In this document: positions 44,646-50,966 of the stretch, in pieces
Layout: every line of letters begins with the position of its first letter
How positions within the stretch are numbered: position 1 is the stretch's first letter
DNA from: Patescibacteria group bacterium
GTDB lineage: Bacteria > Patescibacteriota > Minisyncoccia > UBA6257 > 2-01-FULL-56-20
Direction: 5' to 3'
Length of the DNA stretch: 64,000 nt
Assembly: GCA_028865305.1 (NCBI GenBank)
Contig: JAGWKM010000003.1
Location: 4,820 to 68,819 of the forward strand
Translations under genes and position numbers: made by a program
Notes under the pieces: generated by a model
What the model saw: only the letters and a program-made list of their open reading frames with translations
Databases searched by the model: none
Told to the model about the DNA's origin: nothing

Positions 44646-47201
44646 ATGCGCGATAAAATTACAATCAAAGGGGCGCGAGAGCACAATCTAAAGAACGTTA
44701 ATCTCGAGATTCCGCGCGATAAAATGGTCGTTTTCACGGGGCTTTCGGGCTCGGGCAAATCGAGCTTGGCTTTTGATACGATCTTCGCGGAGGGCCAGCG
44801 GCGGTATATCGAGTCGCTTTCGGCGTACGCGCGGCAGTTTTTGGGTCGGCTCGACAAGCCGGACGTGGATGACATTGAAGGGCTGTCGCCCGCGATTTCG
44901 ATCGACCAGAAATCGCATTCGGCGAACCCGCGTTCGACCGTCGCGACCATCACGGAAATTTACGATTATCTCCGCGTGCTCTTCGCGCGCGCCGGCAAGC
45001 CATTCTGCCCGCGTTGCGGCCGGGAGATCAAAAAGATGACGAACGAGGAGATCGTCGATATTGCGATCGATATTTCCGAGGAGAATGGAGGACGGAGAAT
45101 GGAGAGTGGATTGGTTTCCAAGAAAACGCTTGGTAAAAATCTGCTGATCCTTGCGCCGGTCGTCCGCGGGCGAAAAGGGGAGTATTACCAGATGCTCTAT
45201 GATTTCCTGAATGCCGGGTTCAGCGAGGTGCGCATCGACGGCAAATTCCATTCGTTGCGCGACCGGGTTGAATTGAGCCGCTACAAATCGCACGACATTG
45301 ACCTCGTGATCGACCGCATGCCGGCCGGGATGAATTTCAAAGACAAGGACAACCGCCTGCGCCTCGCTGAAGCGATCGAGTCGGGCATCAAGTACGGCAA
45401 CGATGTCGTGACAATCATCACCGACAAGGAAGTTTCGCTTTCGGCAAAGTTCACCTGCCCGCACGACGGTTTTTCATTCCCCGAAATCGAGCCGCGCCTG
45501 TTTTCGTTCAATAGTCCCTACGGCGCGTGCCCGGAATGCCATGGTTTGGGCGTGAAAGATATTTGGTCGGATGAGATATGCCCGGTCTGCGAAGGCAAGC
45601 GTTTGCGCGAAGAGAGTCTGAATGTGCTCGTCAACGATAAAAGCATCGTGATGGTGACGGCGCTTTCCATCGAGCGGGCGTATGAGTTTTTCAGCAAGAT
45701 GAAATTCGCGACGGCATCGATGGCGGAGGTCGCGGAAACGCCTCTCCGCGAGATCAAGAGCCGGCTGAAGTTCATGATCGACGTCGGCTTGGAATACCTG
45801 ACGCTCGACCGCAAGGCCGGAACGCTTTCCGGCGGCGAGGCGCAGCGCATCCGGCTGGCGTCGCAAATCGGTTCGCGGCTTGTCGGCACGCTCTATATTT
45901 TGGATGAACCGACGATCGGCCTCCATCAGCGCGACAATTTGAAACTGATCCAGACCTTGCAGGAGCTGCGCGATTTGGGGAACACGATCGTGGTCGTTGA
46001 GCACGATGAAGACACGATCCGCGCGTCGGATTATTTGGTCGACGTCGGGCCCGGAGCCGGCGTGCATGGCGGCAGGATCGTGGCGGCCGGGCCGGTGCCG
46101 GAAATTTTGAAAGATTCGAAGCAGGACTCGCTTACCTTGCAATATCTGCGCGGCAAGAAATTCATCGAGGTGCCCGATGAGCGTCGCAAAATCGATTCGA
46201 AGCGCGAGCACCTGAAGATCCGCGGCGCGCACGCGAACAACCTGAAAAATATAAACGTAGATATTCCGCTCCGGCGTTTTACGGCCGTGACTGGCGTCTC
46301 GGGCAGCGGCAAGTCATCGCTCGTGTACGATGTGCTCTATGAAGCCGTGGCGGCGAAATTAAACCGAACGAAAGCGCCCCCCGCGAAAGCATCTTCCATC
46401 CTCGGCCTGGAATATATTAACCGCATCATAAACATCGACCAGGCCGCGATCGGCCGCACGCCGCGCTCAAATCCGGCGACGTACGTCGGCGCCTGGACGC
46501 ACATCCGCGACCTTTTCGCCTCAACCGAAGACGCCCGCGTGCGCGGCTACAAGCCCGGCCGGTTCAGCTTCAACGTGCCCGGCGGCCGCTGTGAAAACTG
46601 CGAAGGCCACGGCACGATCGCGATTGAGATGCACTTCCTGCCGACCGTCTACGTCACCTGCGATATCTGTAAGGGCAAGCGCTTCGACCGCGAGACGCTC
46701 GAAGTCGAATACAAGGGGAAAAATATCTACGACATTTTACGGATGACGATCGAGGAAGCCGTGAAGTTCTTCGAAGACATCCCGTGGCTCTATGAAAAAC
46801 TCACCATCTTGGAAGAGGTTGGCTTGGGCTATCTTGAACTTGGCCAATCAGCCACGACGCTCTCCGGCGGCGAAGCCCAGCGCATCAAGCTCTCGGCCGA
46901 ACTCGGCAAGCGCGACACGCGCCGCACGTTGTATTTATTGGACGAGCCAACCACCGGCCTCCATTTCGCCGACATCGACCAGCTCATCAAAGTCCTGCAA
47001 CGTTTAGTTGATCGCGGTAACACCGTCGTCGTGATTGAACACAATTTAGACGTGATAAAAACCGCCGACTGGGTAATTGATTTAGGCCCCGAAGGCGGCG
47101 AGCGAGGAGGCCAGATAATAGCCACGGGAACCCCCGAAGAAATAGCAAGGAAGAAAGGCAGTTTCACAGGGGAATACCTAAGGAAAACATTACAGAAGTA
47201 A
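44646..47201 (+). CDS. uvrA: Excinuclease ABC subunit A (short, 851 aa)
   Basis: [35 protein letters not shown], the Zn modules CPRCG / CPECHG / CENCEG...CDICKG, and two ABC signatures LSGGEAQRI. Confidence 0.93.
45078..45110. repeat. GAGAATG-family heptads in frame inside uvrA
   Basis: gaggagaatggaggacggagaatggagagtgga encodes [11 protein letters not shown]. Confidence 0.85.
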
Positions 47202-47280: not shown

Positions 47281-47310
47281 GTGACAATATTTCCATCGGT
47301 GCTATAATTG
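47281..47310 (+). promoter_or_regulatory. Promoter GTGACA-N16-gTGcTATAAT
   Basis: Perfect -10 with extended TG, upstream of the 41-aa ORF. Confidence 0.5.
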
Positions 47311-47329
47311 GTTTTAGCGAGGTGATGGT

Positions 47330-47455
47330 ATGCTCCTGTTGGGTTTCGGATTCCCGATCCTGGTCATCTTGTTGGCTCTGAACTGGGCGTGGCCGCGCCG
47401 CGATCGTTTTTCGGAATCTCGTCTGATGGAACATTTTATGGGTCCGCTGAGGTAA
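47330..47455 (+). CDS. 41-aa hydrophobic peptide (single TM plus basic tail), not in the ORF track
   Basis: GAGGTG 5 nt upstream of the ATG. Translates to MLLLGFGFPILVILLALNWAWPRRDRFSESRLMEHFMGPLR. Terminator at 47497-47524. Confidence 0.4.
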   Translation: MLLLGFGFPILVILLALNWAWPRRDRFSESRLMEHFMGPLR

Positions 47456-47496
47456 TAAAAATATCGAAAGCGAGACACGCATGACTCCTGAATTTG

Positions 47497-47524
47497 CCCG
47501 GCTCTTGCAGCCGGGATTTTTATT
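47497..47524 (+). terminator. Intrinsic terminator
   Basis: CCCGGC-TCTTGCA-GCCGGG followed by ATTTTTATTT. Confidence 0.7.
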
Positions 47525-47538
47525 TGATTACGAAGAGC

Positions 47539-47567
47539 TTGACGCGTTATTCATTTATTACTATAAT
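47539..47567 (+). promoter_or_regulatory. Near-consensus promoter TTGACG-N17-TATAAT
   Basis: Read directly, ~50 nt upstream of ATG 47620. Confidence 0.7.
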
Positions 47568-47619
47568 TAATTCAGGCCTTTAGAAACTTTTTTGGTCAGA
47601 AGGTCAGAAAGGAAGAGTT

Positions 47620-47889
47620 ATGAGATATCGGGGGTTTGTAGTCGGCTCTGAAACGAGGCCCGGCGGACGTCTTGTTTGGAAAGTGAGGATAAAGGACGCC
47701 GGCAGCCCCTATGATGGCCAGAAGTTCACCGTGGCTTCGATTCACGGCGGACTTGAGCTCGCACGGGGGCTGAACGTTACCTTCGTCCTCGGGACCGTGG
47801 ATGACGAGACTGAGCAAAAAGTCATACGAGCCGTTGATGTGCGCCTGGAAGGAATTCCGGACGCGAAACCGCAACAGGACGAGCACTAG
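47620..47889 (+). CDS. Hypothetical 89-aa beta-rich protein, first gene of the AAA+ operon
   Basis: GAAAGGAAGAG upstream. 33-nt gap to the AAA+ gene. No family recognised. Confidence 0.6.
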   Translation: MRYRGFVVGSETRPGGRLVWKVRIKDAGSPYDGQKFTVASIHGGLELARGLNVTFVLGTVDDETEQKVIRAVDVRLEGIPDAKPQQDEH

Positions 47890-47922
47890 GCCGGAAAGTC
47901 AAAAGGTCAGAAGGGGAATGAA

Positions 47923-49608
47923 ATGGAAAAAAAGAATGGAAAGGGGTGGCAGCCGCTCATCGCGACCGTGGAGCGGATCCAGGACGTAGAATTTCACCCT
48001 GGGCAAATATTCACGGATTTCAGCGGCTCCGAGTTTGCAATTACCGACCAGAAAGAAGGGATGGGGTTCAGGGTTGGCATGCTTTTATCAGCCAAGCCGG
48101 ACAACACTTTGAGAGGTGAAATCCTTAGGGCAAAAAAAATTGTAGTCGTTGGATTTCTCTCGGGTGGGCAACCCGTAGTCCAAATTGACGATGGATTCAT
48201 TGCCGGTTTGACCAGTGATACCATCGGCACATTCAAGATCATCGGCCAGTTTGGTATATCGGCCACGGTGAACGCCGGCGGCAAACGCTTCAACGCTTTT
48301 TTACCCAAAGACCTCGCGGTCGCCGTGGGCGACAGGGTGGCAGTCGATTTATCCGATCCGCAAAAGCCGAGAATCACGGGGAAAGTTGATCCGGATATGC
48401 GATCATCCGGTGGCGCCGCAAGGACTTCGACACCGCGGCTCAACCGGCAGCTCGACCCGACCCATGTCGGTTTTGATGCTGAAAAGCTTGAAACCGATCT
48501 CTCCAAGCGTATCGTCGGCCAGGCCGAAGCCATCAGGCAGGTGGTGAATATTTACCAGACCTATCTGGCAGGCATGGCCGCTTCCGGGCATCCCATCGGG
48601 AATTTCCTTTTTCTCGGGCCGACCGGCACCGGGAAAACCCGCCTCGTGGAGGCAACCGCCGAATCGTTCGTGGGTGACATGCGAGCGGTCGTTAAGATCG
48701 ACTGCGCGGAGTTCCAGCATAGCCACGAGATTGCGAAACTTATCGGCTCGCCCCCGGGATACCTCGGGCATCGCGAAACGCACCCGTTGCTTTCCCAGGA
48801 GGTGCTGAACCAGTATCACACCGAGAAAGTGAAAATCAGCTTTGTCCTTTTCGACGAAATCGAAAAGGCGAGCGACGCCCTCTGGAATCTCCTCTTGGGG
48901 ATTCTCGACAGGGCGACCCTCACGCTCGGCGACAACCGGCGCGTGGATTTTTCCCGGGCGATAATCTTCATGACGAGCAATCTCGGCGCGGCGGAAATGA
49001 GCAACATCCTCCGGCCGAACGTTGGGTTCGCCGCGGGAGAGATTGAACGCAAAGCTGCCGCCGGCATCGCGAATGAAAAATTGAACGTAAAGATCGGCAA
49101 CGCCGGCATCGCGGCTGCCCGCCGGAAATTCACGCCTGAGTTCATGAACCGCATCGATAAGACCGTGGTATTCCGGCCCCTCGGCGAACCCGAGCTCCGG
49201 AAGATCCTCGCGCTCGAGCTGAATATCATCCAGCAGCGGATTTTCAATTCGGCAAGCAGCGCCCCGTTCGTATTTTCATGCACGGAGACCGCGGAGGATT
49301 TTCTCCTGCGCGAAGGCACCGACATGAAATACGGCGCGCGCCACTTGAAACGGGCAATCGACCACAATCTGGTCCATCCGCTTTCAAACCTCATCGCGAC
49401 CAGGCAGGTGTGCGGCGGGGATTTGATCCGAGTGGATTTTGACGGGGATACCCGACGACTGACCTTCTTCAAGGAAGCCGAGGATATGCCCGCCTATGCC
49501 ATGGTGCAGCTGGTGGACACTTCCATCACGCCGCCGCGCGGAACCTTCTCTTCGGGCGCGATAGCCGATCCACCAAATGCGGCAAACGCCCGCGGCGAGC
49601 GCCGCTAG
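47923..49608 (+). CDS. Single-ring AAA+ ATPase of the ClpA/ClpB D2 type with an unrecognised ~190-aa N-terminal region
   Basis: RIVGQAEAIRQVVN...PIGNFLFLGPTGTGKTRLVEATAE, IGSPPGYLGH, VLFDEIEKA, IIFMTSNLG and FTPEFMNRIDKTVVFRPL match the AAA_2/ClpB_D2 layout. No D1 ring, no Clp N-domain. Confidence 0.8.
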   Translation: MEKKNGKGWQPLIATVERIQDVEFHPGQIFTDFSGSEFAITDQKEGMGFRVGMLLSAKPDNTLRGEILRAKKIVVVGFLSGGQPVVQIDDGFIAGLTSDTIGTFKIIGQFGISATVNAGGKRFNAFLPKDLAVAVGDRVAVDLSDPQKPRITGKVDPDMRSSGGAARTSTPRLNRQLDPTHVGFDAEKLETDLSKRIVGQAEAIRQVVNIYQTYLAGMAASGHPIGNFLFLGPTGTGKTRLVEATAESFVGDMRAVVKIDCAEFQHSHEIAKLIGSPPGYLGHRETHPLLSQEVLNQYHTEKVKISFVLFDEIEKASDALWNLLLGILDRATLTLGDNRRVDFSRAIIFMTSNLGAAEMSNILRPNVGFAAGEIERKAAAGIANEKLNVKIGNAGIAAARRKFTPEFMNRIDKTVVFRPLGEPELRKILALELNIIQQRIFNSASSAPFVFSCTETAEDFLLREGTDMKYGARHLKRAIDHNLVHPLSNLIATRQVCGGDLIRVDFDGDTRRLTFFKEAEDMPAYAMVQLVDTSITPPRGTFSSGAIADPPNAANARGERR

Positions 49609-49630
49609 ACCTTGTTTTTAAGCAGATTTT

Positions 49631-49659
49631 GCCTCCGGCACCCGTCGGAGGCATTTTTA
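49631..49659 (+). terminator. Intrinsic terminator after the AAA+ gene
   Basis: GCCTCCG-GCACCCGT-CGGAGGC followed by ATTTTTAT. Confidence 0.75.
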
Positions 49660-49703: not shown

Positions 49704-50966
49704 GTGAAACGCAAGGATTACAAAAAACTGCCGGAGACGCCGGGCGTTTATCTCATGAAAGATACCGGCGGCAAAATCCTCTATGTCGGCAAAGCGGGCA
49801 ACCTGCGCCGGCGGGTTTCAAGCTATTTTGAACGGCCCCATGACGTGCGGATCGAGAAACTGGTAAGCAAGATAGCGAGCATCGATTTTGAAGAAACCGA
49901 TTCGACCCTTGAAGCCCTGATCCGCGAAGCCCGGCTCATCCGCGAACTCACACCGCCCTTCAACGTGAAGGAAAAAGACGATAAGAGTTTTTTATACATC
50001 GAGATCACGAAGGAAAAATTTCCCCGCGTGCTTTTGGCGCGCGGGCATGATGTAGGAACAGGAAACAGGAAACCGGGAACAGGGAACCTATTTGGGCCGT
50101 TTACCTCGGCAACGGGCGCGCGAGAGGCATTGCGGATTTTAAGGAGAATTTTCCCGTGGAGCACGCACGAAACCGAAGGGAAAAGCGGAAAGAAAAAAGA
50201 AAAAAGGGCGTGCTTCGATTACGAACTCGGTCTTTGCCCCGGAACCTGCATCGGCGCCATCAGCGAGCGGGAGTATAAAAAGAACATTGCCCATCTGAAG
50301 CTCTTCCTCGAGGGCAAGAAAAAAAAGCTGATCGCCGCGCTCGAAAAAGAAATGGCGGCGGCGGCCAAAACTATGGAATTCGAAAAAGCGGCAAAACTGC
50401 GCGGCCAGGTTTTTGCGTTGAAGCACATAAGAGATACGGCACTGATGGGGAAAGAGGAGAATGGAGAATGGAGGACGGAAAATGGAACAAGGTTTCGCAT
50501 CGAGGGCTACGACATATCGAATATTTCCGGCACTGCAGCCGTGGGGTCGATGGTGGTTTTCGAAAATGACCAGCCGGATAAAAATGAATACAGGAAGTTC
50601 AAAATAAAAACGGTATTCCAACCCAACGATGTCGGTATGCTCACGGAAATGCTTGAGCGGCGTTTTCGCCATTCTCCCGTTCTCCGTTCTCCGTTCTCCA
50701 TTTTGCACCCATGGCCTCTCCCCGGCCTCATCCTCATCGACGGCGGTTTGGCGCAGGTGAATGCGGCAAACAAAGTGCTGCTCCGCGCCGGGCTGAAAAT
50801 ACCGGTCGTCGGTATCGCGAAAGGCCCGGAACGGAAGCGGAACGACATCATCGGCCTCGTGCCGAAGGGCGTAAAAAAGGAAACACTGATCCGGGTGCGG
50901 AACGAGGCGCACAGGTTCGCGATCAGTTATCACAAAAAATTGAGAGGCGTAAACGCGCTGCATTGA
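49704..50966 (+). CDS. uvrC: Excinuclease ABC subunit C, short form without the C-terminal (HhH)2
   Basis: GIY-YIG PGVYLMKDTGGKILYVGKAGNLRRRV, UVR motif MEFEKAAKLRGQVFAL, and endonuclease part IEGYDISNISG ... RVRNEAHRFAISYH. GTG 49704 chosen because TTG 49629 lies inside the upstream terminator. Confidence 0.88.
   Translation: MKRKDYKKLPETPGVYLMKDTGGKILYVGKAGNLRRRVSSYFERPHDVRIEKLVSKIASIDFEETDSTLEALIREARLIRELTPPFNVKEKDDKSFLYIEITKEKFPRVLLARGHDVGTGNRKPGTGNLFGPFTSATGAREALRILRRIFPWSTHETEGKSGKKKEKRACFDYELGLCPGTCIGAISEREYKKNIAHLKLFLEGKKKKLIAALEKEMAAAAKTMEFEKAAKLRGQVFALKHIRDTALMGKEENGEWRTENGTRFRIEGYDISNISGTAAVGSMVVFENDQPDKNEYRKFKIKTVFQPNDVGMLTEMLERRFRHSPVLRSPFSILHPWPLPGLILIDGGLAQVNAANKVLLRAGLKIPVVGIAKGPERKRNDIIGLVPKGVKKETLIRVRNEAHRFAISYHKKLRGVNALH
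50054..50087. repeat. GGAACAG-family heptads in frame inside uvrC
   Basis: aggaacaggaaacaggaaaccgggaacagggaacc encodes GTGNRKPGTGN. Confidence 0.85.
50454..50488. repeat. GAGAATG-family purine array in frame inside uvrC
   Basis: gaggagaatggagaatggaggacggaaaatggaac encodes [11 protein letters not shown]. Confidence 0.85.
50668..50703. repeat. Complementary pyrimidine array in frame inside uvrC
   Basis: gccattctcccgttctccgttctccgttctccattt encodes HSPVLRSPFSIL. Roughly complementary to the 50454 array ~180 nt upstream. Confidence 0.85.

Follow-up and report, generated by a model that had tools for sequence, protein, structure and literature searches.

The window analysed here, a 64-kb stretch of the genome of a Patescibacteria group bacterium, carries a two-gene operon on the forward strand, with uvrA upstream and uvrC downstream. 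Inspection of open reading frames and signals confirmed the layout described in an earlier note on this DNA. A sigma-70-type promoter, TTGACG-N17-TATAAT (47539..47567, +), matches the consensus at 11 of 12 positions and is the same in an independent metagenome contig, L042. It is followed by the gene for an 89-aa protein (47620..47889, +), the gene for a 561-aa AAA+ protein (47923..49608, +, stop codon included), which is a continuous ORF with AAGGGG placed 7 nt before its ATG, and a clean intrinsic terminator (49630..49653, +) made of a 10-bp stem with 7 G-C pairs and then a T-run TTTTTATCAT.

The sole other copy of this exact gene pair lies on L042, a contig of 544 bp that comes from a sister strain and is 95% identical from the promoter through the 20th codon of the large gene. 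The start region and the first 20 codons of the large gene present no differences between the two, and the untranslated regions are nearly invariant, although the small gene has reached a dS of 0.42 (dN/dS 0.12). Co-conservation of the two genes, on which the earlier note had staked its reading beforehand, did not hold up: the exact pair is not co-conserved, and the small gene is missing from 59 of 60 related genomes.

With regard to the surroundings, no tRNA or Rfam element was found in the 64-kb window, and no target-site duplications were found flanking the locus. In relatives, the search for the uvrA-uvrC adjacency gave upstream matches that were partial, of ABC type and just 37-47% identical. 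A possible meaning of the position between two excision repair genes had been raised, but no tie to nucleotide excision repair emerged and homologous cassettes occur in unrelated neighbourhoods; the placement between uvrA and uvrC looks incidental.

The small, predicted OB-fold protein and the repeats around its gene

The 89-aa protein belongs to an unnamed family, with 12 homologues at 55-89% identity. Searches of Pfam, NCBIfam, PHROG and PADLOC gave no match for it, and neither did a tblastn search of 50,697 phage records. Membership of known defence or phage families was likewise rejected for both this protein and the N-domain of its larger neighbour, with none found in PADLOC or PHROGs. 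An OB fold is predicted, as the AlphaFold2 model (pLDDT 87.4) is a five-strand barrel with an ordered core of residues 1-77 and a disordered tail. The closest folds in both structure libraries are the OB folds of SSB, PriB and S12, and these top Foldseek hits are of the weak, generic kind that OB folds give (E~5e-3, TM 0.4-0.5). From bacterial SSBs the protein is set apart by the missing Pfam and NCBIfam matches, the weak fold likeness and the variable tail, where SSBs end in an acidic tip. The conserved core of the family comprises R2, G5, A39-S40, L47-A48-x-G50-L51-N52-V53 and R70-A71-V72-D73, and all 19 invariant columns in an alignment of 12 sequences are kept in the protein of the window. 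The tail varies across the family, some members lack it, and it overlaps in part with a repeat at the nucleotide level.

Both translation starts of the operon are marked by GTCA(A/G) repeats. A tandem repeat with an 8-nt period, GTCAGAAGGTCAGAAAGG (47595..47612, +), overlaps the Shine-Dalgarno region of the 89-aa gene, and a second one, GTCAAAAGGTCAGAAGGG (47898..47915, +), overlaps that of the 561-aa gene; together they make up a direct-repeat family (repeat family D2), and the 64-kb window has no exact copy of the 10-mer GGTCAGAAGG outside these two start regions. Repeats of this kind, with a period of ~8 nt, surround the small gene at 13 loci, with a density of 19.6 per kb against a background of 1.67 per kb. 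At least two motifs are present in the 70 nt after the conserved core of the small gene in 12 of the 13 loci, compared with 0.8% of background 70-nt windows. They accompany the small gene whether it precedes an Mpa-like ATPase, a phage-type AAA, a Rossmann-type protein or the D2 chimera described below. A genome-wide regulon of paired GTCA repeats was considered and rejected (21 matches, with ~23 expected by chance); most of the other paired matches in the genome are its own 7-nt repeat elements.

The proposal that a small beta-rich protein is co-transcribed with a single-ring AAA+ unfoldase was sustained. The gene after the small-gene homologue could be resolved at 13 distinct loci and encodes an AAA+ ATPase at 12 of them, the exception being L044, where a Rossmann-type, non-AAA protein follows. 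Small-gene homologues precede three unrelated AAA+ architectures, and some lie before a phage-type AAA of 508 aa whose N-domain is unrelated. Given these varied downstream genes, the small protein cannot be linked specifically to the OB/SH3 N-domain of the large protein. The N-terminal segments of the latter had also been thought to resemble the small partner in style. Profile-profile comparison spoke against any homology of the N-domain to the 89-aa protein (hhalign probability 0.2%), and the idea was rejected; what they have in common is that both are beta-barrels. The 89-aa protein could be an adaptor or an RNA-binding regulator.

A chimeric AAA+ protein with a D2-type motor

The large protein opens with an N-domain (residues 9-155; 47947..48387, +) consisting of an OB barrel that carries, between strand 1 and strand 2, an inserted SH3-like domain (residues 27-101; 48001..48225, +). 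AlphaFold2 predicts an all-beta structure, with an overall pLDDT of 80.7 that rises above 90 for most of residues 12-150. The insert belongs to an unnamed repeat family of ~78 aa that has no Pfam model and that phmmer recovered in 16 clusters out of 1.84 billion representatives. The domain is found in arrays of 2-14 tandem copies on the C-terminal side of AAA_5/MoxR-type ATPases, in company with an L7/L12 C-terminal domain, on its own, or as a single insert in Mpa-like ATPases, and the invariant residues of the family (G52, G77, F78 and Q87) are all present here. Foldseek returned weak SH3, Tudor and OB matches for the N-domain, with the Mpa inter-domain structure 3fp9 at rank 24. BLASTP aligned residues 30-147 with residues 62-182 of P0016, an Mpa-like protein of the candidate phyla radiation (CPR) (E=3e-9), and tblastn of the N-domain against L014 gave E=9e-11. 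Judged from these alignments, the N-domain is homologous to the N-terminal region of CPR Mpa/ARC-like AAA ATPases; homology to the N-terminal half of the 508-aa phage-type AAA was rejected. The two segments that the earlier note had called beta-rich are indeed so, but they are a piece of a CPR Mpa/ARC-like ATPase carrying the unnamed repeat domain and not the novel region that had been supposed.

In other CPR genomes, the related cassette is ordered as small OB gene, Mpa/ARC-like AAA ATPase, Pup-like peptide with a Cys-x-Cys end, and DUF1360 membrane protein. The ATPase is laid out as a coiled coil, OB1 (with the SH3-like insert in some members), OB2 and a classic AAA module, and such partner ATPases find their best matches in the proteasome-ATPase model TIGR03689 (E down to 2e-100, under its cut-off) and in Mpa structures. 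The operon of the window shares with this cassette the homologous N-domain (OB1 plus insert) and the small-gene family upstream. The coiled coil that serves Mpa/ARC as Pup receptor is absent from the 561-aa protein, in which no helix precedes the OB domain and the sequence begins where the coiled coil of P0016 ends. OB1 corresponds to the inter-domain of Mpa/ARC, OB2 is absent, and the motor comes from another AAA+ clade: the module is AAA_2 in place of the classic AAA (PF00004), and TIGR03689 does not match the protein. No Mpa-like, Pup-like or DUF1360 gene was found by tblastn in the genome itself. The lone weak match to a Pup-like gene (contig C292, E=0.009) lies on a 3-kb phage-like contig; it is not Pup-like and was discarded.

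The N-domain is followed by a linker that holds the fusion boundary (residues 156-170; 48388..48432, +) and contains Met159, from which the source gene caller starts the 403-aa protein P0001; residues 160-189 are disordered in the AlphaFold2 model. The remainder (residues 171-561; 48433..49605, +) is a complete D2 AAA+ module of the stand-alone type, including the C-terminal tail of that family, EDMPAYAMVQ... The single AAA_2/ClpB-D2-type module recognised in the earlier note was recovered in Pfam as one AAA_2 domain (residues 224-413) and one ClpB_D2-small domain (420-504). Alignment of its motifs located Walker A, GPTGTGKT (residues 232-239; 48616..48639, +), Walker B, VLFDEIEKA (48844..48870, +), sensor 1, the Arg-finger region PEFMNRIDK (49135..49161, +) and sensor 2, GARHLKR (49333..49353, +). 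The aromatic-hydrophobic translocation loop in the pore, GYLG (48757..48768, +), aligns with GYVG in the D2 ring of E. coli ClpA and in the genome's own paralogue, and the G-Y-x-G columns are invariant in the alignment. Pfam and profile searches of the 561-aa protein detected no D1 ring, Clp_N or middle domain, in line with what had been noticed before.

Residues ~171-561 align over their full length with stand-alone proteins of ~392 aa at 78-84% identity, from the N-terminal peptide RLNRQLDPT through to the C-terminal tail. At the DNA level, homology to the stand-alone D2 genes starts at nt 513 of the ORF, which is codon 2-3 of the family, with an identity of 72-75%; the family start MGRLN reads TPRLN in the chimera, the ancestral start Met being gone. 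According to these comparisons, the 561-aa protein is chimeric, joining part of a CPR Mpa/ARC-like ATPase to the product of a complete D2-type gene. D2-only relatives, previously held to be uncommon, number at least 8000 matches at E<=1e-30. The best 120 of these are 389-434 aa long and 77-84% identical, and none of these 120 carries the 170-residue N-terminal extension with its two folded domains that distinguishes the 561-aa protein, which is also encoded behind a small OB-fold gene. Annotation pipelines call members of this family 'ClpA' or 'ClpB', and the two with taxonomic names are labelled Bryobacteraceae and Terriglobia. A full-text literature search found nothing on the stand-alone D2, SH3-like or small-OB families.

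The fusion junction is known from a single contig. A word-based search with residues 1-190 gave the window's own protein alone, and no further fusion copies were found in the metagenome scan. In a maximum-likelihood tree, the motor is nested within the stand-alone family as sister to P0034/P0035 (support 90/93), on a long branch of 0.34; this nesting points to horizontal transfer, through which the D2 motor was probably acquired. Among 60 related genomes, leaving aside two-ring Clp genes that are ~40% identical, further strong matches were limited to one gene, a diverged stand-alone copy.

Comparison with Clp unfoldases and rival readings

The motor appears closer to the D2 ring of ClpA and ClpC than to ClpB. 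The ClpB model TIGR03346 gives 229.8 bits against a cut-off of 1232.1, with the match confined to model positions 558-849, and the Clp_N, D1 and coiled-coil middle domains typical of ClpB are absent in Pfam. With the D2 of ClpA/ClpC, the 561-aa protein shares an HCLR-clade AAA_2 module, the D2-small domain, the GYxG pore loop, the Arg finger, sensor 2 and, after sensor 1, a loop with the pattern [LIV]-G-[FL]. It differs from them in having a single ring, without Clp_N, D1 or the zinc-binding domain, and in a conserved C-terminal tail of ~50 aa that they lack; its binding to ClpP is predicted from sequence.

This prediction concerns the VGF tripeptide at residues 367-369 (49021..49029, +), a candidate ClpP-docking loop. 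The earlier reading had seen no ClpP-binding IGF/L loop by eye, but VGF aligns with IGL of E. coli ClpA and with IGF of the genome's two-ring Clp paralogue on contig C48, and [VL]GF is conserved across the stand-alone D2 family. The D2 of Thermus ClpB has a gap of 15 residues over the segment that includes VGF, and ClpC chains match the loop region in one stretch, ClpB chains only as two pieces. ClpP is encoded in the same genome, on contig C242. Given the absence of the xGF loop from ClpB and the presence of ClpP in the genome, the motor is therefore ClpA/C-like and not ClpB-like, and a ClpP-coupled protease becomes likelier than a stand-alone remodeller; the D2 motor probably feeds ClpP. Of the two functions suggested previously, that of a single-ring AAA+ unfoldase is upheld and that of a ClpB-like remodeller is disfavoured by the ClpA/ClpC-type loop. 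Docking on ClpP is read from one aligned tripeptide. In the four family contexts examined, which are large, high-GC contigs, the D2 gene comes after an SDR gene and in none of them does it lie beside clpP.

We favour, with somewhat more belief than doubt, a reading of the locus as a derived CPR mobile cassette in which OB1 and the SH3-like domain were fused to an acquired, ClpP-docking D2 Clp motor, with the 89-aa protein as cofactor. Everything downstream of OB1 would have been replaced, with OB1 and its insert joined in frame to a stand-alone D2-type Clp ATPase, and the coiled coil, OB2, the classic AAA module and the Pup-like and DUF1360 genes would have been lost here. The 561-aa protein would form one hexameric ring whose six OB domains build a collar at the pore entry, as in Mpa and PAN, with the SH3-like domains pointing outward as recognition sites. 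The GYLG loops would thread the substrate and the VGF loops would dock the ring on ClpP, so that substrates would be degraded, beyond remodelling. ClpX, as a single-ring partner of ClpP, may be a functional parallel. The 89-aa protein would be a dedicated cofactor that either works at the N-domain, as adaptor or gatekeeper, or regulates the operon. SspB-type adaptors, in which a small beta-barrel body with a flexible tail brings substrates to a single-ring Clp unfoldase, suggest an analogy with its compact beta-barrel core and disordered tail and with its being encoded together with its unfoldase; no sequence match or specific structural match links the two.

Two other accounts assign different functions to the pair. 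The ATPase might be a ClpP-independent remodeller or disaggregase of the ClpB-D2 type that works like human Skd3/CLPB, with the 89-aa protein as adaptor or substrate. The top profile and structure matches by score are indeed to ClpB D2, the ClpB_D2-small domain is present, and the four contexts without an adjoining clpP fit this account. It also has a precedent in Skd3, described as a single-ring D2 disaggregase (PMC7343390). Like the 561-aa protein, Skd3 sets one D2-type ring on an unrelated N-terminal protein-binding domain, which in Skd3 is made of ankyrin repeats rather than OB/SH3; its chains match the motor at E~1e-32, a lower similarity than that of bacterial ClpB/ClpC D2 (1e-55). The account seems unlikely in view of the post-sensor-1 loop, with its [VL]GF conserved in the whole D2 family and missing from ClpB and Skd3, and of the lack of a middle domain for Hsp70 coupling. 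Somewhat less doubtful, yet still tentative, is the idea that the 89-aa protein binds single-stranded nucleic acid sequence-specifically at GGUCA(A/G) repeats (candidate site GGUCAGAAGGUCAGAAAGG) and gates translation, the downstream gene being an exchangeable payload. The predicted likeness to SSB, PriB and S12 would suit such a role, as would repeats that overlap the ribosome-binding sites of both genes, are enriched in 13 loci and go with the small gene whatever gene comes next, and untranslated regions that stay nearly invariant in the sister strain while the small gene diverges. However, the weak structural matches are of a kind common to OB folds, the Shine-Dalgarno sequence is part of the repeats, which may be no more than a conserved strong ribosome-binding site, and the AAA+ ATPase downstream in 12 of 13 loci favours a partnership at the protein level.

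The remaining accounts question the fusion itself. It is improbable that the first 158 codons are left over from a disrupted Mpa-like gene and either go untranslated or lack a function, with a 403-aa D2 ATPase made from Met159. The source annotation does call the protein from there, and an aligned Met is the first residue of some D2 family members 403-406 aa long. However, the frame is unbroken and a good Shine-Dalgarno sequence precedes the upstream ATG, whereas the sole purine-rich run before Met159, GGGGAAAG, stops 13 nt upstream of it. Moreover, the sister strain shows no change in the upstream start or the first 20 codons despite the divergence of the small gene, the invariant residues of the repeat domain are kept and its fold is confidently predicted, and the usual family start MG has become TP. 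Far less probable still is an assembly artefact that misjoined the D2 gene of another organism into the contig, even with a bin of 388 contigs and 8% contamination and a junction present in one contig only. An artefact would need two precise junctions, one of them in frame at donor codon 2-3. The GC3 of the D2 part (0.74) fits that of host genes such as uvrA (0.725), and a member of the D2 family is also present in a related CPR genome. Furthermore, the nearest relatives, at 72-75% DNA identity and across a long branch, indicate that the D2 gene was not copied from an abundant co-assembled genome.

A proposed exchange of motors in protein-unfolding machines

AAA+ unfoldases are regarded as modular, with an N-terminal recognition domain set on a generic motor. 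To our knowledge, natural swaps of motors between clades on one front end are hardly documented. Under the favoured reading, the locus would represent such a swap, with the CPR Mpa-like cassette as the state before and the D2 chimera as the state after. What was lost (coiled coil, Pup-like peptide and DUF1360) and what was kept (OB1, SH3-like insert and small OB protein) would then delineate two functional groups. A bolder proposal, which we regard as unlikely but worth stating, is that the 89-aa OB protein and its GGUCA(A/G) sites form a portable CPR control module that moves together with interchangeable unfoldase payloads. In this genome, selection would have retained the module and the OB/SH3 entry domain, while a proteasome-type motor dependent on the Pup-like peptide was exchanged for a Clp motor that can dock on ClpP, redirecting the same set of clients from unfolding to degradation.

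The analysis also draws attention to three uncharacterised families: an abundant stand-alone D2 ATPase with a candidate ClpP-type docking loop, an SH3-like repeat of ~78 aa that occurs on three kinds of AAA+ ATPase, and a small OB protein with conserved repeats at the RNA level. If the bolder proposal is true, the operon would be the first natural case of one substrate-selection front end on motors from two AAA+ clades, and it would give a first functional handle on the large stand-alone D2 family, as a minimal partner of ClpP. Under the favoured reading, the exchange of a proteasome-type for a Clp-type motor in a small-genome bacterium would speak for the modularity of protein-unfolding machines.

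Operon layout and a second copy

The gene for the 89-aa small protein (window positions 47620-47889) and the one for the 561-aa large protein (47923-49608) lie on the same strand, separated by 33 nt in which no terminator is present. Both are bracketed by a promoter, TTGACG-N17-TATAAT (47539-47567), that matches 11 of the 12 consensus positions, and by a strong terminator (49630-49653), which bears out the two-gene operon proposed in an earlier note. Upstream, uvrA ends at 47201, and downstream the start of uvrC is most plausibly the GTG at 49704. The location between these two genes carries no functional hint, because related cassettes occupy unrelated neighbourhoods.

L042, an independent contig of 544 bp from a different metagenome, shares 95% identity with window positions 47440-47983. 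The promoter is shared, with a single differing position across the promoter and 5' untranslated region, the start of the large gene is identical and the small proteins are 89% identical. Purifying selection acts on the small gene, its dN/dS between the two strains being 0.12 and its dS 0.42. The divergence is a mosaic: codons 26-69 of the small gene (window 47620-47889, L042 183-452) contain 27 of the 31 nucleotide differences, and the intergenic region together with the opening 20 codons of the large gene has a single one. This pattern suggests either a recombination tract within the small gene or a strong constraint acting on untranslated sequence. A separate promoter-to-terminator unit, encoding a short hydrophobic peptide, occupies positions 47281-47524 between uvrA and the operon, and its 3' part, from 47440 to the terminator, also precedes the operon promoter in L042.

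The small protein, its gene neighbours and the associated repeats

The small protein has no match in Pfam. In the AlphaFold2 model (pLDDT 87) it folds into an OB barrel of five strands and ends in a disordered tail, and its best structural matches in the PDB and BFVD, albeit weak, are single-strand-binding OB folds (SSB, PriB and S12). No homology to the N-terminal domain of the large protein was detectable, so the resemblance between the two that had been noticed earlier is not borne out as common descent.

Twelve homologues were retrieved, with identities of 55-89%, and the gene is rare, being carried by only two of 61 related genomes. The related genomes measure 0.5-1.3 Mb, which fits the candidate phyla radiation (CPR)/Patescibacteria, and the named genomes with a homologue include Saccharibacteria and Parcubacteria MAGs. 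In most of the contigs and named genomes with a homologue, the next gene encodes a protein of 583-673 aa whose best matches are the proteasome-ATPase model TIGR03689 and Mpa structures. This Mpa-like gene is followed by that of a ~60-aa Pup-like peptide with a C-terminal CxC and then by that of a DUF1360 membrane protein; Mpa-like, Pup-like and DUF1360 genes were not found in the window's source assembly. In the DUF1360 products of loci L001 (8504-8932) and L005 (6821-7231), the cytoplasmic C-terminal tail is a coiled-coil segment. It resembles the coiled coil at the N-terminus of the Mpa-like ATPases from L008 and L013 (tblastn E=1e-4 to 4e-4), a similarity that hints at a possible pairing of the membrane protein with the coiled coils of the ATPase.

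An alternative downstream gene, present in three MAGs (two Saccharibacteria and one labelled only 'bacterium'), encodes a 508-aa phage-type AAA protein of the phrog_10440 family, found in N4-like phages, with an N-domain unrelated to that of the window. It follows the small-gene homologue in L015, L016 (7240-8766) and L019 (7254-8780), matches phrog_10440 at E=2e-103 and is ~38% identical to ATPases of N4-like phages. The sole locus with a non-AAA gene in this position is L044 (757-2567), where a 511-aa Rossmann-type product with a weak NAD/FAD signature is encoded by a gene overlapping the small-gene homologue by 4 nt. An AAA+ gene thus adjoins the small gene in 12 of 13 loci, and given the variety of downstream genes, the small protein is a consistent AAA+ gene neighbour that is not bound to one N-domain. 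On its 5' side, the small gene has a conserved neighbour of 134-158 aa in L001 and L015-L017.

Both the small gene and its downstream neighbour have ribosome-binding sites overlapped by GTCA(A/G) pentamers with a period of ~8 nt; in the window these pentamers lie at 47595-47612 (GTCAGAAGGTCAGAAAGG) and 47898-47915 (GTCAAAAGGTCAGAAGGG). Over the 13 loci their density is 19.6 per kb, about 12-fold the background of 1.67 per kb, and at least two copies occur within 70 nt 3' of the conserved core in 12 of the 13 loci, against 0.8% of background windows. Outside the window, the repeats surround the homologues in L001, L005, L006, L008, L013-L016, L018, L019, L043 and L044, regardless of the downstream gene, and many start codons are found within GGTCATG. 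Furthermore, the variable 'GQ' tails of the small-protein family are partly translated GTCA(A/G) repeats. Since repeats at ribosome-binding sites travel with the small gene, a serious alternative to an adaptor role is that the small OB protein binds them on the mRNA and thereby exerts a putative translation control.

Composition and origin of the large protein

Pfam likewise yields no match in the first ~190 residues of the large protein, and a full HMMER scan of residues 1-190 against 1.84 billion representative proteins matched only 16 clusters, which define an unnamed domain of ~78 aa corresponding to residues 27-101. Arrays of 2-14 tandem copies of this domain lie C-terminal to AAA_5/MoxR-type ATPases, and it is also found in combination with the L7/L12 C-terminal domain, on its own, and as a single insert within the N-terminal region of Mpa-like ATPases. 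No Pfam model covers the SH3-like domain (P0017-P0032); the AAA_5/MoxR-type ATPases that bear up to 14 copies at their C-terminus are 700-2100 aa long, and the combination with the ribosomal L7/L12 C-terminal domain is seen in P0022. An AlphaFold2 model based on an alignment of these clusters is all-beta and confident, with a pLDDT of 80.7 overall that exceeds 90 over most of residues 12-150. In it, a small SH3/Tudor-like barrel (residues 27-101) is inserted in an OB-like barrel between strand 1 (residues 12-21) and strands 104-154, and residues 160-189 are disordered. The Foldseek matches, to a Mib repeat, tandem Tudor and OB folds, are only weak and generic, and the Mpa inter-domain is at rank 24. 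At the sequence level, residues 30-147 align with residues 62-182 of one CPR Mpa-like ATPase (E=3e-9), and the N-domain matches the Mpa-like ATPase of L014 at E=9e-11. As the alignment spans both the SH3-like insert and the remainder of the first OB domain, the N-terminal region is, judged by homology, a fragment of the ATPase normally encoded downstream of the small gene, and the novelty previously claimed for it does not hold in the sense of a region without relatives. Compared with the CPR Mpa-like ATPases, the large protein lacks the coiled coil and the second OB domain.

The motor is a single module, as described in the earlier note, with Pfam placing AAA_2 at residues 224-413 and ClpB_D2-small at 420-504; in NCBIfam and the PDB the matches are confined to the D2 half of ClpB, ClpA and ClpC and stay far under any family cut-off. 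Residues 160-561 have at least 8000 matches at E<=1e-30, the best 120 of which have lengths of 389-434 aa and identities of 77-84%. Among the matches listed, the pipeline names are ClpA or ClpB, and Bryobacteraceae and Terriglobia are the labels of the two that bear a taxonomic name. In the contexts examined, the stand-alone D2 family, uncharacterised ATPases of ~392 aa, lies on large contigs of up to 2.4 Mb with 61-65% GC and has no small partner. In four such large, high-GC genomes (L009-L012) a gene for a 239-aa short-chain dehydrogenase (SDR) always lies directly 5' of the D2 gene, and the ~50-aa C-terminal tail of the family (EDMPAYAMVQMVDTSIAPP...RR) is nearly invariant. DNA identity between the window and the stand-alone genes is 72-75% and starts at nt 513 of the large ORF, which corresponds to codon 2-3 of those genes, the family start MGRLN reading TPRLN in the window. 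A maximum-likelihood tree nests the module within the family, with P0034/P0035 as its sister group (support 90/93); its branch, at 0.34, is long compared with the median of 0.06. Of the 60 relatives, one alone (G027) has a stand-alone copy, which is 65% identical, likewise nested, and on a branch that is longer still. The remaining strong matches in the relatives come from the D2 halves of two-ring Clp genes and are ~40% identical. On these grounds, horizontal acquisition of the motor is probable, together with its in-frame fusion to what was left of a Mpa-like gene.

The source's gene call places the start of the large gene at Met159, a reading that is disfavoured: the Shine-Dalgarno spacing before this codon is poor and the stand-alone family's own start codon has been lost, whereas the upstream start has a strong Shine-Dalgarno sequence that is kept in L042, and the N-domain is intact, with a confidently predicted fold. 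It is also unlikely that the large gene is an assembly chimera, which would need two precise junctions and is at odds both with a GC3 that agrees with the host and with the long branch of the D2 module.

Predicted ClpP docking and significance of the fusion

The tripeptides IGL and IGF are the ClpP-docking elements of ClpA and ClpX. In the large protein, sensor 1 (MTSNLG) is separated from the Arg-finger region (PEFMNRID) by a stretch that includes ...ILRPNVGFAAGEIERK..., whose VGF is aligned by MAFFT with the IGL of E. coli ClpA and the IGF of the source genome's two-ring paralogue. In contrast, the D2 of Thermus ClpB is devoid of this loop segment, with a 15-residue gap exactly at the VGF. 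When a 95-residue segment is used as query, ClpC chains match in one stretch and ClpB chains as two pieces only. The earlier impression that a ClpP-binding loop was missing is therefore not sustained, and [VL]GF is conserved across the stand-alone D2 family. ClpP is encoded in the source genome, and the motor retains intact Walker A/B motifs, both sensors (1 and 2), the Arg finger and the GYLG pore loop. The most likely activity of the large protein is predicted to be ATP-driven translocation into ClpP.

The same genome encodes two two-ring Clp paralogues. One, of 885 aa (contig C48, 22550-25204), has an unusual combination of a long ClpB-like middle coiled coil and IGF at the ClpP-docking position; the second (C379, 69473-72094) has a hydrophobic N-terminal region and a degenerate D2 pore loop (GSPDGQTDG) in which the aromatic residue is absent. 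A phage-like contig (C292, 3016 bp), unrelated to the operon, carries a lysine/arginine-rich ORF of 332 aa and a partial, DNA polymerase-like ORF of 499 aa.

Full-text literature searches turned up no publication that deals with the CPR cassette, the stand-alone D2 family, the repeat domain or the small protein. The parts of the locus fall in known superfamilies (the AAA+ HCLR clade, OB and SH3-like). The significance of the fusion lies in a front end that was retained as the motor was swapped across AAA+ clades, in the clean split between the parts lost and the parts retained, and in an xGF loop that suggests a function for the very large orphan family of stand-alone D2 ATPases.
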